Origin: Paramecium tetraurelia
Taxonomy: Eukaryota
Direction: 5' to 3'
Length of the DNA stretch: 64,000 bases
NCBI GenBank assembly: GCA_000165425.1
Contig: CT868119.1
Location: 434,001 to 498,000, forward strand
Below, piece by piece: positions 542 through 52,862 of the stretch (its first letter is position 1; each line of letters starts with the position of its first letter). The translations under genes were made by a program, and so were the position numbers. A model generated the notes under the pieces. It was not told where the DNA came from. It was given only the letters and a program-made list of their open reading frames with translations, and did no database searches.

Positions 542-1302
542 ATGGCTGATGAAAATCCAGATGACAATAATTTTGAATTTATCAAATTCCTTCCTGAAGG
601 TGATCAGAAGACCAAGTCTTCTAGAGATTATACTGGTAGAGGATAAGCCAAATATGCCAATAATGAAATCTATGAAGGTGAATATGTTGATGGAGTAACT
701 GTTTCAAATCTAATCCTTAGAAAAGAAATGGTAAAGGCAAATATAATTATGCTAATGGTGACCTCTACTTTGGAGATTTCATAAACAATGTCAAACATGG
801 AATTGGTAAATTAACATACAAAGAAAAGGGAGAATATTTCGGTTTCACTCCCCTTTATTATTTTAGGCTAATGGGAAAATGGTAAGAGACATGGAGAAGG
901 CATTTTTACATTTCCAAACAAGGACTAATATAGTGGATGGTGGGCATTTGGTAAAAAAGAGGGCAATGGCACATATATTTATAATGATACTGGGATGAGA
1001 GTATTTTCTAATTGTCTATTTTACATTAGTTAGTAGGGTAATGGAAAGACAACAAGTTTGTATCTGGAAGATGGGTTCTACCAAATGGTACATACTATGA
1101 AGGGGAATTCGATAATAATAAGCCAAATAAGGTTGGAATCTGGTACTTCAAGAATGGCAATAAAGTAGAAGGAACATATAATCAAAAAATAATTCCAAAT
1201 GAAGATTCTGAGGATAAGAAACTTAATATAGAAATGAAATGGGCATCTAATGGATATTTATATTAAAATGCAGATTTAGTAAATGCACATGAAAAATTCT
1301 GA
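542..1302 (+). CDS. MORN-repeat protein (radial spoke head 1-like)
   Basis: Ciliate-code translation MADENPDD...YEGEYVDG/KRNGKGKYNYANGDLYFGDFINNVKHGIG...HEKF-TGA. Repeated YxGxWxxGxxxGxG motifs. Introns at 695-720, ~842-866 and ~1001-1029. Confidence 0.88.
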
Positions 1303-1333: not shown

Positions 1334-2871
1334 TCATTCATTATATAATTTTAATTATTCCTAAATTATATGAAAGGAATTACATTTTTTCTATTAATTC
1401 TAATATTATCAGTATCTAGAACATGCTTTTCTATGTTTTCATCTTTTTCAAATCCAAAGTTCAATACAAAATTGTTTGATTTTGACGGACTCTCCCTACC
1501 TTTTAGTGTAGGTGATGCTATGGTTTCAGGCAATCTTCTATCAAATAAACATAATTGTAATATCTCTAATAACATGGCAGCAAATGTCAACACTAATTCA
1601 GGTATGCAGAGGGGCATTAATTATTCATCAATGATATCCCTCATATAAACAAGATTCAGTATATTTGACCAATCAGTGCATTTCTAAAGAATAACCATAA
1701 GACATTATTACATTTTCAATATAAGAATGCATGGTATTTCTAAAATGAGCCAGAAATCCCAATTTAGTACCAACGATAGATAAATGTGCCATATGAAGGA
1801 GAATGAGGAATGTTGTAGGACAATAGAATTTCCAAGTAACCTTATAAATTTTGTGTTTAAATATGCCCTTTCTAGTTAAATTTTGTATGATTGCAGAATG
1901 AAATATTGCTCCAAAACCCATTAAAAAGCCTAGATCAATTTAATTAAGAATTACCTGCCATAATGAGAGCAATCAAAAATACAAGTTGAATGTAATTGTC
2001 TCTGAAATTGGAGACATCAATCTATTTAATGGTACAATTATATTCTGTAAACTTTTAACCAAAAAGACCAAACTTAGGTGTTTCAGGGAAATACTCTAAT
2101 CCAGGCAAATTCTCATATGGGTATTCATTTTCTTCAAATAATAAATACTAATCAAATTCATCTATGAACGCATATTCTGATGATTAAATCACACATTTAT
2201 AGGCTGATTCTAATAATGGATATTGATTAATTGAGTCTCCATCCTCGTAGCAAACATCGATTCCATAGCTTAATGTGAAATTGAAATATGATTGGGTAAG
2301 ATTTTCTTTGGAGATTAAGTCTGCATAGTTTCCACAAGCATTTTATTCATTTTTAGTTTAGCAAACTCCTTTACAAATAGACGTGCAGTTTTTTTCATAA
2401 AATAATTCTCTGTATGTATATTCAGATCTTCTTCCACAAATAGAATATCCCTTCCAGATTCCAAAATCTTATGAGTTGATAGATGCTATTTCATCACATC
2501 CCTCATCAATATCGGAAGACTAACAATGTTCACTTTTCAATTTATCATAATCAATTTCACCATTCTCATCTTCTTCTCCAAAGCCACAGTCACATCCTTA
2601 TTATTTGCTTAGTATAAATACCACTTGAGGTTTCAGGATAACTGTATTCAAAGAATGTTTCAAGATTGGATGGACATTTTGAATCGTTTATTTTTTGAAT
2701 TTCAACAATTGGTTTAAATTCCCAGTTATCATATAGATTTCTATCCATTTAGTAGTGATTTATGTATAGAATCAAGGCCAATGGGAAGATCACACACTCT
2801 ATAAGGAAATTGAGATATTGAACAGATGCAGCAAAGTGAGTGGATTTCCAATAACTAGGTTTTTGCTTCAT
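1334..2871 (-). CDS. Multi-pass membrane protein with Cys-rich extracellular region
   Basis: MKQKPSYW..., an N-terminal TM, a Cys-rich loop (CDCG..., CGRRS, CKGVC) and C-terminal TMs. About 4 tiny introns join track ORFs 1673-1921 and 1366-1617. Confidence 0.7.
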
Positions 2872-2895
2872 TAAATAAAATATTATAATTATATA

Positions 2896-3421
2896 TCATG
2901 TACTTACATTTACTAATTTTTCCATTGCGAATAATATTTTCTTGGAGGACTTGTAATGTTTTTAGGGATCAATTAACAATTCGCATATTCGTTGCAATGT
3001 AAAAGGTGGCCTGGTATATTAAATGGAGAATAATATACTTTTATTCAAAAACACAGAGGAATTGGAGCACTATATCTAATTCATCCTCGAAGCCTTCATT
3101 CTGAGCAGTCTTTTCATAAGGGAACAGCTTTTGCATATTTAATAACATATCTCTGGTTGTGATGACAATAAGTGATCTCAAATAGAGCCAGTTATATTTT
3201 TGAATTTCGCCGTTCTGAGAGATAGATTCTAATATTGGTTTCAGCTGGCTCATTAAATTATTGATTTGAATGGGTATATCCTTGAAGTATTAAATGAGGT
3301 CTTTTACTTTCTTGATCCGAATTCCTTATTGGATTTAACTGACAATCTCTTGGGTTTGCTCATAGAAATCTTTGAGTTGGTTCTAATAGTCATGTTGAAT
3401 CATTTCTTTATTTTCATTCAT
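2896..3421 (-). CDS. PPP4R2: Protein phosphatase 4 regulatory subunit 2-like (PPP4R2 domain)
   Basis: After one intron the C-terminus reads PPFTLQRICELLIDPQKHYKSSKKILFAMEKLVNVST-TGA, matching the PPP4R2 signature PFTxQRxCELL. Confidence 0.85.
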
Positions 3422-3445
3422 TTTATTTAATTAATTAATATATAA

Positions 3446-3548
3446 GGCATAGTTGAAGTATAAACTAGGGGTGTTGATTCTAGGGAGAATGAATGCAATT
3501 CTTATAGACTCAATCCCCTAAAATCAATATGCTCAGAAAAATCTAACA
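3446..3548 (+). ncRNA. Candidate structured ncRNA (H/ACA-like single hairpin)
   Basis: ~31-bp imperfect stem-loop with an internal loop, followed by AGAAAA (ANANNA) and then ACA. G-U pairs favour the + strand. Confidence 0.4.
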
Positions 3549-3567
3549 ATATTAATTAAAAATAAAG

Positions 3568-4271
3568 ATGAATCCAATTTAATAAGCATGGTTAAAAATC
3601 CTGAACCCAGTATCTGTAGTGATCAACGAGAAGCTGGCCAAAAGATCAGGATTATTGGGTAAGATTGGAAGATTCTTCCTCATTGGCCCAAGAGAATTTG
3701 GATTTCATCCTACAAACTAAATGTTCATTTATTTCAACAGAAGAGTGCTCTTTGCAACAGCCTTCATGGGTCACAAATACTCAGTCTTAAAGTAACTAAC
3801 ACCAATATGTTTACAATAGAGGACTCACTCATTAAGGATATCATATGTTGAGACCAATGAGAGCAGCTGTATTCTTGGGACCAATTGCAGTTTTGGCAGG
3901 TCTATTTAGATTGGTCTACTATTCCTCTGAAAACAGATCCTACTAGTATGCAATATTATTTGGATAGTTAGTCCTGATAATTTGGATTACGTGATGAAGA
4001 AAGCCACTAATGCATTACATTTTCCATTGAACACTTTGAATCAAAGATTATCAGCACATTACACAGAGATAAGTTCTATTTATACAGCTGAAATGATGAA
4101 GAGAGTAATAATCTATTATTATTCAAATCTTAGTATCATAAATAACATGCCAAAATAATCAAGGAGAGATCAATACAATCAGAACATGTTAAGAAAACTA
4201 AATATGCGGATCCATCATATAAATATGTCCCAATGACTCCAGTCCACATTGAAGATTTAAAACTCGCTTGA
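3568..4271 (+). CDS. Ciliate mitochondrial ATP synthase Fo subunit (i/j-like)
   Basis: MNPIQQAWLKILNPVSVVINEKLAKRSGLLGKIGRFFLIGPREFGFHP...LNQRLSAHYTEISSIYTAEMMKR/YHK...KTKYADPSYKY. It closely resembles the Tetrahymena ATP synthase subunit I recall as i/j (from memory). Three tiny introns. Confidence 0.72.
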
Positions 4272-13418: not shown

Positions 13419-13472
13419 CTATTTTGTATTTTATATTTATTATTTCCTATATATACTTTATTTGTTTATTTA

Positions 13473-15289
13473 TCATTTATATTTTTGAAGAATTCCACCA
13501 GATGAAGCAACCAAACAACCTGCTTCGTGAATCCAAAGTAGTGGTTCAGGGAAATTCTTCTTAGGTCCATTGATCACTTTGATTTCCCCATCAATAACAG
13601 AAATAAATTTGTGAGTACCATCCCAAGAAGATGTAACAAATAATCTAAAAGATATTAAATGATCTCTTTACTTTTAGTCTATTCTAATAAGAAATCTAAC
13701 TATAGATTCATGAGCCTTGATAACTTACTATATTTCGATTGATTAAACAAAGGTGTAAATTCTTACTTCTCCAGAACTATTTCCAGTAACAAATCTAACT
13801 CCATCCAAAGCAATCACTGACTTAATTTCACTTTCCTAAGAAACAATTCCAACCAGATCTCCAGTTAAAAATTTGTAAGCCGCAAGCATACCATCATCAG
13901 AAACTGAGGCTATAATTTCTGGAGTTATCAAAGCTATATCATTAACACTTGCTTAATGGACAGCTATCTTCTACACTTACTATTAGTTTTAAGTATTAAA
14001 GATTTTAATAGTCTTAAATAACAATAGATAATTACTCCATCTTCTGAACATGATGCTATTAGATTTTTAGGTAAATTGATGACCTACCAAATGTATTTGT
14101 CATGAGCATTGATGACTTTCCATTTGTCAAAGGTTTCCCAATCCCAAAATTACAACTAAAAAGATTCCTCATTCTCTTCAACACTTATTATTATTCCTTA
14201 TTATACCTTGCAATTATGTATGTTTTTTTATCTAATGTCACTGAACACAAAGCCGAGATATCATTTTCACAATCTACTTATGATATAAATGAAAAGTTTT
14301 TGGTTTTGTCAAATATCATAATTCTAGTCCCAGAACTATAGGCAAGTAATTTTTAATCAATCGAAATGATCGATTTCACTTAAGGATTCTCTTACCTCTC
14401 CATTTGGTTTGGCTCAATTACCAGGTCTTTCACTCCTTAAATCTTTTTATTTAACTAACATTTATTACAGATTTAATTTATTCAACCAAATACTCTTGTT
14501 CTTGTTTATTCTTCTCAATTAAAAACTAAAATGTAGGCTCCTACAAATCTACCTTTGGAGCCTCAGCTACACTCTAGAATCAATTAGATTTATTATCATA
14601 CCTATTTACTTATCTATTCAATCTTCTTAGAAATTTCGTTTTTGTATTGAGTAAACTCATTTAGAATCATTTCCAATTTTTTTTTGACTCCCTGAGCATC
14701 TTTTAAAGCATCTATAAATTTTCTTGCTTCCTGCTCATGAAATAGTACTTTAGTCAATAGACTTGCGCTTAAATCATCTCCTTTTTAAAAAGGAATCTGC
14801 TAATCAATGATAGAACTAAATTGATCAATAGTATTTGGAGTGACTAACTAGATTAGGATTATCAAATTTATTTACATCGAATATGTCGTCAACGGTGAAA
14901 AGATTATTGGGTAATTTCTTAAATATGCAATTTACAAATAACTAATGGATGCCATTTAATAAGATTTCATGAATAGAATCAGCTGTTTGCACTAATTTGA
15001 TTCTCAATTATTCGGTCTCATTAAATAATGGAGTCATTTTTAATTTGTATTCCCCAACTAAATCATTAGATGTTTAAGTTTAGAGTTTATTTTACATTTC
15101 TTTAAAAGTTACAAACTATTCCTTCATTCTAGACTGTTTGCACAAAGCGCATGCTTTAAATGTTTGACTTCTGTCTGTATAATTTAAACTTACACAGTCA
15201 TAAGCATTATTGTGAATTTTACATTTATCCTCCAAGGAGATACCCCCTTTTTCATTAGCCTTTTTGTTTTTGCCACTACAAGCAAACAT
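13473..15289 (-). CDS. WD40-repeat protein with N-terminal Cys/His cluster and coiled coil
   Basis: N-terminal CKIH...CALC. C-terminal WD repeats include AHDKYIWQV...IASCSEDG, VHQASVNDI, AHESIVRFL and FVTSSWDG. Confidence 0.8.
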
Positions 15290-39184: not shown

Positions 39185-39215
39185 TATTATTTGATTTAAA
39201 TTTATAATTAATTTA

Positions 39216-40855
<1,640 letters not shown>

Positions 40856-43292: not shown

Positions 43293-44408
43293 ATGACCTA
43301 AAGTCGATAACTCATATTATAAAATACTACATCCTACTTTAGCAATTATTAATTCAGTTAAGCAGGCATAATTACACAGGAAACAGCTTGTAAAAACAAA
43401 ATCAGGATAAGAAATACACAGTCTTGCAGTGTTTCTTAGATTGCTATTTATAGGGTTGGAATAAAAAATTATAGAAAGAAAGCGTTGGATCTCAAATTTG
43501 AATAGGATTTTAAGGCTAATAATTAAAAAATAATTGAATATTTCATCAGTAAAGTCGACTATACGAACTGTATTAATGCAGACAAGAAGGCATACTTATA
43601 CAATAAAAAAACTATCCAAAAAGATGAGGATATCAAATTTGCAAACTAAAAAATGTTAAACCTGATGAAGATAAGGAAGTTATCTGTTTATTTAGGTATG
43701 TTTGATTAGATATTGAGATTTGAAAAACCAATCACCACTAGAAATAGATTATTTCAAGAACAGACAGAATTTTTGATGGTATCTTGAAAACAGCCTAGAA
43801 AGCTTCTATATTTAGCTTAGAGGATAAAGATCTTTCAAGGTAAATATGTAGGAGTGAGAGGAGATGAAGAAGAACTCCAATAAATAATAGGAACTAGAAT
43901 TCAAGATGTTAATAAAGCTAGATAATTATCAAGTGCCAAACTATCATATTCAGTATTGAAGGAATTCATTAAATCGAATGAAAAACATTTTATTATAGGC
44001 CCATAAATAGATGAATAGGGAAATGTTTGTTTGAAGAATGTGTAATAATTCTTAGAATGGGGGCTTGGTTCGCGAATGAATCCAGATCTGTCTAGATTAA
44101 AGTAAATTGAGATTGACCGATATGTAAGGATTAAAGTGTTATTTTAGTGAATAATAATATATTGTATTGGATGCTCCAATTACAATTAACAATTGGAAAA
44201 GAATGGTTGCAGTATTTTTGAGAAGATCTGCTAATTAGTTGAAACAATTACTGAACAAAATCCTAGTCAATTATTAAACAGTAACTATATTTGCTATTTC
44301 TACTCTAGCATAAGAGGATAATATATGGAATCTGAAGAGGACAAAATAAAGGACTTATTCATGTAATGGAATGCTAAGGTTTTGGAATTACAGAGAAGCA
44401 AAAGGTGA
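43293..44408 (+). CDS. Hypothetical protein, possibly pseudogenised
   Basis: Coding-like frame (…QGKYVGVRGDEEELQ…FLEWGLGSRMNPDL…) with an in-frame TGA at ~44148 that I cannot remove with a canonical intron. Confidence 0.45.
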
Positions 44409-52438: not shown

Positions 52439-52862
52439 TATCAATTAATTGAAAATTATTGAGTCAACCTCATATTGGCCCCCCACTCATATATCGCCAT
52501 TATAAAAAAAAAGATATAGGGTACAACCCTATTATTTATTCATTTATGAACTACTTCATATAAAAAATGAGATGATTAAACAATCAATAAGTACAGAAGA
52601 AATCAAGTAATATACTCAAATATTTACAATTAATTTCTAAACTGAATTCTCAATTTATTAATCAAATTAAATATAATTGCCTTAACTTTTAAGTTCCTTA
52701 AGATTAGATTATTTGGTTATGAAATCAAATAGGTTTTAATTAATATCTTTTCAGCTTTATCATTTTTTAAAGCTTGAAGGATATTTTAATGGTAATAATT
52801 GCTTTTTAAAACTCATTTAATTTTAAATTATAAAATAACGCACAATTTAATAGAGTATTTAT

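Follow-up and report, generated by a model that had tools for sequence, protein, structure and literature searches.

The closest described counterparts of the structure analyzed here are the single-hairpin AGA-box guide RNAs of trypanosomatids and Euglena, for which the available part of the source gives a stem I of 5–8 bp preceded by an A, an AGA box 1–3 nt beyond it, a spacing of 13–16 nt to the box, a 5′ pocket strand of 5–11 nt (with one recorded exception of 15 nt) and a total length of 57–91 nt (PMC2613932). The box H/ACA snoRNAs of the ciliate Tetrahymena have two stems and typically 124–136 nt, and 22 of 27 intergenic monocistronic snoRNAs in that organism lie downstream of a USE (PMC3273799, sections available). 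Arisong and PM01 are small, structured, intergenic ciliate RNAs known in P. tetraurelia that form dumbbells and carry a 3′ GUUC tail and an upstream PSE (PMC3177221, in the part available). Divergent promoters in Paramecium are compact, with A/T leaders next to the ATG and a common intergenic space, and the available portions of the papers that treat them describe neither a palindromic core nor a well-supported core motif (PMC5485702; bioRxiv 10.64898/2026.09.19.752804). Quasi-palindromes attributed to template switching, finally, consist of reverse-complement arms around a short spacer (bioRxiv 10.1101/2021.04.15.439925, sections available).

The locus examined here, a gap between two divergent genes in a 64,000-nt stretch of Paramecium tetraurelia DNA (herein the window), shares with the trypanosomatid and Euglena RNAs a single hairpin, an A before a 6-bp stem I, an AGA 1 nt after that stem and 14 nt from upper stem to box; unlike them, it has a closed 14-nt 5′ pocket, a length above 91 nt and no target found, and it is known from sequence alone and stands solitary between divergent genes rather than in a snoRNA cluster. 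Its GCA/UGC lower stem followed by ANANNA resembles Tetrahymena H/ACA 5′ hairpins, but here one 88-nt stem stands without a second, no USE precedes it, and none of the pockets listed in the available part of the Tetrahymena source matches by eye (PMC3273799). The dumbbells, GUUC tail and PSE of Arisong and PM01 are all absent. Compared with described template-switch quasi-palindromes, the arms are long (~70 bp), contain several indels and extend into both 5′ leaders, the ancestral sequence lying outside the comparison; compared with described Paramecium promoters, this gap stands apart by its G+C-rich mirrored center. We hypothesize, with slightly less than even confidence, that the gap is a quasi-palindromic bidirectional promoter; that it encodes a small structured RNA of any kind, an H/ACA guide included, seems to us rather unlikely.

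A Probably Old Divergent Gene Pair

The window is A/T-rich ciliate DNA (26.7% G+C). As the first-pass annotation had it, divergent PPP4R2 and ATP synthase genes face away from a 146-bp gap (3422–3567), with the minus-strand ATG at 3421 and the plus-strand ATG at 3568, so that the two start codons lie on either side of a short common space:

2896..3421, minus strand: PPP4R2 gene GSPATT00008840001, with a 27-nt intron at 3281–3307
3568..4271, plus strand: gene GSPATT00008841001 for mitochondrial ATP synthase subunit i/j, whose exons agree with that model

The identity of the left gene follows from PF09184, present in its relatives, and that of the right gene from chain i of 6ynx (E 3e-72). Both genes appear to share one contig in P. 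octaurelia (two contigs), P. pentaurelia and P. sonneborni (two contigs), and because they are co-located in these sister species, the pairing is probably old, apparently older than the last genome duplication. Skipped protein accessions in other species raised the idea of a hidden gene between the two; interleaved submissions would explain the skips instead, and we dropped it.

The PPP4R2 intron (GT..AG, minus strand) is spliced out in sequencing runs X17 and X19, and is retained as nine extra residues in both P. tetraurelia v1 models, which at 165 aa exceed the 156 aa of the sister species; the retention is an annotation error. A gene judged by eye to be MORN-repeat-like lies at 542–1240 (plus strand) of the window.

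A Stable Hairpin at the Center of the Gap

The predicted minimum free energy (MFE) structure contains every helix that had been described from the sequence, with 31 pairs (three of them G-U), a 9 × 3 internal loop and a 7-nt apical loop:

3446..3533, plus strand: hairpin core of the palindrome, 31 bp with three G-U pairs, G+C-rich
3466..3520, plus strand: upper 21-bp stem-loop, bearing CCCCTA once on each strand
3493..3495, plus strand: loop ATG of the hairpin, within the ATP synthase reading frame and the start of a P. octaurelia protein model (P0014)

The plus strand of the core folds to −27.5 kcal/mol (z −4.0), a value reached by one of 1,000 dinucleotide shuffles, so that folding energy does lie beyond shuffled controls. 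The proposal that the structure forms on the plus strand specifically fares less well: the three G-U pairs favor that strand, but the minus strand also folds (−23.1 kcal/mol, z −3.5, 0/1,000 shuffles), over 3440–3555 it outscores the plus strand (−3.25 versus −2.92), and folded as DNA the two are equal (−13.4 and −13.2 kcal/mol), as a promoter read on both strands would lead one to expect. Wobble-type mismatches nevertheless stand at three G-U to no A-C on the plus strand (3:0, p = 0.125), the kind of asymmetry that selection at the RNA level would leave and hence a point for an RNA, guide or other, and against a promoter.

The energy of the hairpin is the tied lowest among 8,458 windows of 90 nt; z scores near −4 occur at three other places among the 40 best-energy windows. 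Two of these places (13471–13560 and 43786–43875) appear to overlap coding sequence, and the third (52696–52785) is A/T-rich.

The gap as a whole is not unusually G/C-rich, as had been supposed (25.3% against 26.7% for the window); the description holds for the 88-nt core, in which 32 of 88 positions (36%) are G or C, against 0/24 and 5/34 in its flanks. Pooled over seven other candidate divergent gaps (a 399-nt candidate that probably spans coding DNA being omitted), the count is 58/433. A G+C island in an A/T genome is a classic sign of an RNA gene, and this contrast too counts for an RNA and against the promoter interpretation. Rfam covariance models, which had been proposed as a check, gave no gathering-score match in the window and none over the hairpin at E values up to 10.

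Mirror Symmetry Extends from Start Codon to Start Codon

Self-complementarity had been noted at 3446–3533, where it is indeed found; its extent had been underestimated, as it covers the entire gap:

3422..3567, no strand assigned: whole divergent gap, an imperfect palindrome from start codon to start codon that folds end to end
3422..3441, minus strand: A/T-rich 5′ leader of PPP4R2, which mirrors the one on the right
3548..3567, plus strand: A/T-rich 5′ leader of ATP synthase i/j, mirror image of the left leader

On either strand, the fold of the full gap surpasses that of the core by itself (plus, −35.1 kcal/mol, z −4.96; minus, −32.4 kcal/mol, z −4.12; 0/200 shuffles for each). The loop is centered on 3494 and the midpoint of the two ATGs is 3494.5, and the left half, once reverse-complemented, can be aligned with the right half across both leaders and into the first codons. 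Mirror alignment yields a z of 3.7 here and at most 0.9 in the eight other candidate divergent gaps; of the nine gaps found heuristically in the window, this is the one with a mirror or folding signal. Five of the other eight are just 30–37 nt of A/T, which argues that mirrored elements are unnecessary for divergent transcription and so tells against a promoter function of the symmetry.

When the −24..+18 regions of 59 heuristic starts are compared pairwise, those of PPP4R2 and ATP synthase i/j pick each other as best match, with a score reached by two of 1,711 pairs (the second being a self-overlap). The figure for the leaders alone, 9/1,711, is the safer one, given that the shared ATGAAT is common (8/59 starts) and the ATP synthase N-terminus ancient; the low complexity of the leaders and the heuristic start set limit both figures, and count against the promoter reading to that degree. 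Symmetry that runs over both leaders is nonetheless what a palindromic promoter would display, and the coincidence of loop center and ATG midpoint, together with the mutual best match of the leaders, favors one.

Chance would offer a simpler account, in which a G+C-richer intergenic patch happens to fold and generic A/T leaders, which any divergent pair might have available for pairing, pair outside it. Scores near −4 do recur at the three places named above, and upstream of 26 ciliate orthologues the best window, unrelated to the hairpin, has a z of −4 or lower in two cases; against this, the hairpin ties the best window energy while being noncoding and centered, the whole gap reaches a z of −5, and the eight other candidate gaps are without mirror or folding signal. 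We regard coincidence as decidedly improbable. The gap might instead preserve the remains of a small mobile element, or of a retained IES whose ends are inverted; that would account for a G+C-richer insert of ~90 bp with inverted arms between two leaders, yet no second copy occurs in the window and none emerged from a DNA run (a leaky test), the ends as judged by eye do not follow the TA-bounded IES consensus, and the spacer between the arms is just 7 nt. Such an origin appears most unlikely.

Resemblance to a Single-Hairpin Guide RNA

The sequence had been likened above all to an H/ACA or AGA-box guide, a resemblance that turns on the following features:

3535..3540, plus strand: AGAAAA, box-H-like or AGA-like, 14 nt past the upper stem, in a segment without a left mirror partner
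3546..3548, plus strand: ACA trinucleotide, out of register with the pocket
3452..3465, plus strand: 5′ strand of a hypothetical pocket, 14 nt, partly paired in the MFE fold

Read in this way, an H/ACA-like (AGA-box) RNA of ~96 nt (3445–3540, plus strand) would be transcribed from the back of the PPP4R2 start and, by analogy, would bind Cbf5, Nop10, Gar1 and Nhp2 and direct pseudouridylation through a 14 × 7 pocket. Several of its dimensions are right. AGAAAA does begin 14 nt after the upper stem, within the 14–16 nt from the pocket apex at which a box H (ANANNA) is sought and in line with trypanosome single-hairpin spacing, and the A before stem I, the 6-bp stem I and the 1 nt to the AGA all agree with the trypanosomatid consensus. 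Of the 525 candidates that a stem-plus-box filter returned over the window, 19 are single hairpins with an energy of −15 kcal/mol or lower, and the 3446–3533 hairpin is the most stable of the 19. On inspection by eye, 7 of the 28 5′ hairpins in the available Tetrahymena tables have a GCA/UGC lower stem as well (PMC3273799). A box at one of three permitted positions is, on the other hand, expected by chance at a rate of 15% for ANANNA and 19% for either box (1,160 windows upstream of other heuristic starts), and AGAAAA falls in a right-hand insertion that is unmatched on the left of the palindrome.

Other dimensions are wrong. An ACA does follow AGAAAA, as the first-pass annotation pointed out, but it lies 25 nt from the upper stem, has no preceding hairpin of its own as a two-hairpin RNA would provide, and is in register with no pocket. 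The internal loop described from the sequence exists, with AAA alone as its 3′ side; a usable pocket requires that the UUGA/UCAA helix open, at a cost of 2.3 kcal/mol and against pair probabilities of 0.82–0.94, and the pocket is thus normally closed in the ensemble. Both the 14-nt 5′ pocket strand and the total of ~96 nt exceed the consensus ranges given above. No second hairpin is found downstream (best −3.1 kcal/mol) or adjacent upstream, and the hairpin-hinge-hairpin-tail arrangement is therefore lacking; a minus-strand two-hairpin H/ACA model was rejected as 5 kcal/mol worse, its second stem reaching −2.5. The USE/PSE (AAACCCATAA) has no plus-strand match with up to two mismatches from 1924 to 3511, and a host intron was likewise dropped, flanking GT..AG being found on neither strand. 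In the available sections of the Tetrahymena cDNA survey, no single-stem guides were seen (PMC3273799). Elsewhere in the window, a USE-like decamer with one mismatch (39214–39223, minus strand) sits at the edge of a 33-nt divergent gap, probably by chance.

For the target search, eukaryotic rDNA contigs from prokaryote bins and viral collections, none from Paramecium, served as rRNA proxies: ciliate-like SSU, 5.8S and 5′ LSU sequences (so labeled by eye), complemented at the 3′ LSU by other eukaryotes, without ~150–200 nt of central LSU that include helix 69, and with snRNAs outside the search. Against these proxies the best score with one defect per side (−10.8) is equaled by 136 of 300 shuffled pockets and the best strict pairing (9 bp, two of them G-U) by 227 of 300, so that no target stands above chance. 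An SSU rRNA site at GAUUUG-U-CUGG was dropped as being at chance level, and a 9-nt match by eye between the 3′ arm and the SSU rRNA of contig L005 is about the longest that chance would give at these lengths. We take the GAUUUG-U-CUGG site to correspond approximately to yeast U1305, counting from ac4C1280 in yeast; it is absent from the table rows examined.

Taken with the lack of a USE, of a host intron and of an Rfam family, this leaves the proposed guide function without support, and a guide appears improbable. The locus is least guide-like wherever it can be tested and should not be filed as an H/ACA RNA; were it a promoter, the AGA/ANANNA spacing would be incidental. The two ideas can be joined, in that a promoterless single-hairpin AGA-box guide, of the form known in trypanosomes, Euglena and archaea, might have been carved, in a ciliate, from a palindromic bidirectional promoter and born by template switching, the same 7 nt serving as pocket strand and promoter motif, a scenario that we consider doubtful indeed. 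If an RNA reading were true, single-hairpin guides would extend to ciliates, and many may have been missed by two-stem searches; if the promoter reading holds, the locus cautions that a hairpin followed by a box can pass for a snoRNA when it lies in an A/T-rich divergent gap.

Comparison with P. octaurelia

The P. octaurelia protein model P0014 starts at the ATG of the hairpin loop and hence reads through the orthologous 3′ arm. Its 25-residue N-terminal extension (window 3493–3567) agrees with the window at 20 of 25 codons, the in-frame ATGs at 3493 and 3529 both being kept, as against 205/206 and 156/156 residues for the two proteins. Of the five differing codons, four lie among the first 14, which cover the loop and 3′ arm, and one among the next 11. 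The extension is probably a mis-called start.

The simplest nucleotide changes compatible with the model are A3506T and C3532A, each of which breaks a pair; C3518T, which keeps a G-U; A3508T or C3509G, which breaks or adds a pair; and A3539T, which keeps ANANNA. Inferred from a protein model, from one orthologue and for the 3′ arm alone, two to three of the four simplest 3′-arm changes break pairs unless the unseen 5′ arm of P. octaurelia co-varied, a point that we count for the promoter. The changes amount to ~8–10% substitution; a tetraurelia–octaurelia synonymous divergence that could serve as neutral yardstick was not found in the parts of the literature available. That ANANNA is kept, the 3′ pocket is spared at the amino-acid level and one change gives a G-U speaks for a guide, while the faster change of the 3′ arm than of the adjacent leader speaks against a small RNA of another type.

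Evidence on Transcription at the Core

Paramecium 5′ UTRs have a median length of 19 nt, with very few alternative starts (PMC5485702, with a similar account in bioRxiv 10.64898/2026.09.19.752804, as far as their available sections go); with leaders so short, the core should lie upstream of both mRNAs. The alternative suggestion of the first-pass annotation, a structured 5′ leader for the ATP synthase mRNA, is unlikely on this ground. In such a leader, transcription would begin near 3444, and the protein might be extended at its N-terminus from ATG 3493, as the two conserved in-frame ATGs, the P. octaurelia model that begins at the first of them and a continuous contig (below) might suggest. 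The extension is however far less conserved than the mature protein, the Tetrahymena subunit chain begins MNPIQ, and a −27 kcal/mol hairpin would be expected to impede a highly expressed mRNA. We hold a long leader to be very unlikely.

Among 24 sequencing runs, 18 contain half or more of the words, two of the runs being on record as RNA; four were compared as contigs, which show no ends, strand or level. In run X17, which is RNA-like, both genes are represented by spliced contigs, and a single 566-nt contig joins spliced PPP4R2, the core and the ATP synthase 5′ end without differences. This contig shows that the sequence was in the library but not that a discrete RNA exists, and it could stem from DNA or from read-through; it still counts for a small RNA or a long leader, and against the promoter reading. 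Neither X19 nor X20 has a contig over the core, which is no evidence of absence. In run X9 the contig of the locus itself is alone over 3453–3537, among contigs that miss the PPP4R2 ohnologue (P0023) as well. Judging from depth arithmetic, one paralogue upstream end seems to come from an older paralogue.

A small structured RNA other than a guide could be an orphan, a gene-adjacent structured motif or, after duplication of a two-hairpin snoRNA, its decaying 5′ half. A 2009 Paramecium survey reportedly predicted conserved structured motifs next to genes. The G+C island, the G-U asymmetry, the bulge-interrupted helices and the X17 contig are all compatible with such an RNA, but it leaves the mirror symmetry of the leaders unexplained, cDNA run X19 has no contig over 3446–3640 (a weak point, contigs only), and according to the available text neither canonical miRNAs nor miRNA-type hairpin loci are found in Paramecium (PMC6735861). 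We judge it quite improbable. The locus may already be annotated, since the v2 annotation comprises 142 snoRNAs and 689 other RNA loci (PMC6735861, in the part available). The literature matches listed contain no description of it, and its gene identifiers are absent from the supplement searched, Chen et al. 2009 and ParameciumDB lying outside that search.

Upstream Elements and Their Recurrence in Ciliate Orthologues

The stem-loop holds two of the five CCCCTA copies in the window, at nearly mirrored distances upstream of the start codons: 53 nt from that of ATP synthase i/j and 50 nt from that of PPP4R2. None of the other three precedes a heuristic start, which counts against a promoter role. 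A second candidate adjoins it:

3521..3527, plus strand: AAATCAA at −47, a candidate promoter motif that would also form the 3′ strand of the hypothetical pocket

A metagenome scan yielded 31 ciliate ATP synthase i/j loci, the best segment being at most 71% identical and none near P. aurelia. Searches by nhmmer and blastn of the 26 that match at the N-terminus recovered no homologue of the hairpin. AAATCAA, which was first spotted by eye and then counted, turned up in 7 of the 23 distinct 70-mers upstream, where 1.3 would be expected. With one locus without an ATG dropped, leaving 22, and relatives merged into 18 clusters, it is present in 7/22 loci and 5/18 clusters (1.1 expected, raw p 0.005). 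All matches are on the sense strand at −39 to −52, with none antisense and none at −140..−71. Among 64 7-mers upstream of the window's gene it ranks first, although its count alone fails correction for multiple testing (FWER 0.14), and before the window's own starts it is not enriched (4/59 versus 2.2 expected), both of which weigh against a promoter role. The counts are suggestive of a shared upstream motif of ATP synthase i/j in distant ciliates and do not establish one; the fixed distance of this top-ranking 7-mer, and the paired CCCCTA, are what a promoter would predict. Among the literature matches listed, nothing relevant treats AATCAA as a ciliate promoter element.

The loci that bear AAATCAA are L018, L023, L029, L036, L037, L038 and L041, at 39–52 nt before the ATG, and a longer A/T leader motif is common to L018, L023, L036 and L038. 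In the ciliate locus L022, ATP synthase i/j (upstream of 254) is divergent from a helicase that by eye resembles the eIF4A family, ~20 nt apart, an arrangement not syntenic with the window.

A Possible Quasi-Palindromic Bidirectional Promoter

The earlier wording that placed the hairpin inside a bidirectional promoter was well chosen, and we extend it from the observed symmetry, its span and centering, the likeness of the leaders and the recurring AAATCAA. The gap would comprise two head-to-head copies of one promoter-plus-leader module facing PPP4R2 and ATP synthase i/j, each with TCAA/CCCCTA elements ~40–60 nt before the ATG and then an A/T leader. These candidate elements would drive transcription, which may start ~20 nt before each ATG, the core being untranscribed or merely read through, and the hairpin would be the mirror symmetry of the promoter as seen on folding. 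The better fold of the whole gap than of the core, on both strands, fits such an arrangement. Its symmetry may have been born or refreshed by local inverted duplication or by a replication template switch, and, in the portion of the source available, template switching can create hairpins in one step (bioRxiv 10.1101/2021.04.15.439925). The gene pair is apparently older than the last genome duplication, and neutral persistence of the symmetry would thus need a recent origin, a point against this reading.

If this promoter interpretation is true, the locus offers a test case for the poorly known Paramecium core promoter in the form of two mirrored modules, the output of both genes would be readable from one 146-bp construct, and AAATCAA at about −45 would be a candidate motif in common with distant ciliates.

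Eukaryotic rDNA in Prokaryote Genome Bins

Several contigs met in the course of the target search are eukaryotic, mostly ciliate-like rDNA inside prokaryote genome bins (L001, L003, L004, L005, L006 and L009). That of L006 (320 nt) sits in an isolate genome, and L003 has a group I intron near the SSU 3′ end. In a Rubritalea bin (L002:4637-9700), a gapped partial eukaryotic SSU rDNA is followed by a stretch that by eye resembles a degenerate non-LTR retroelement.
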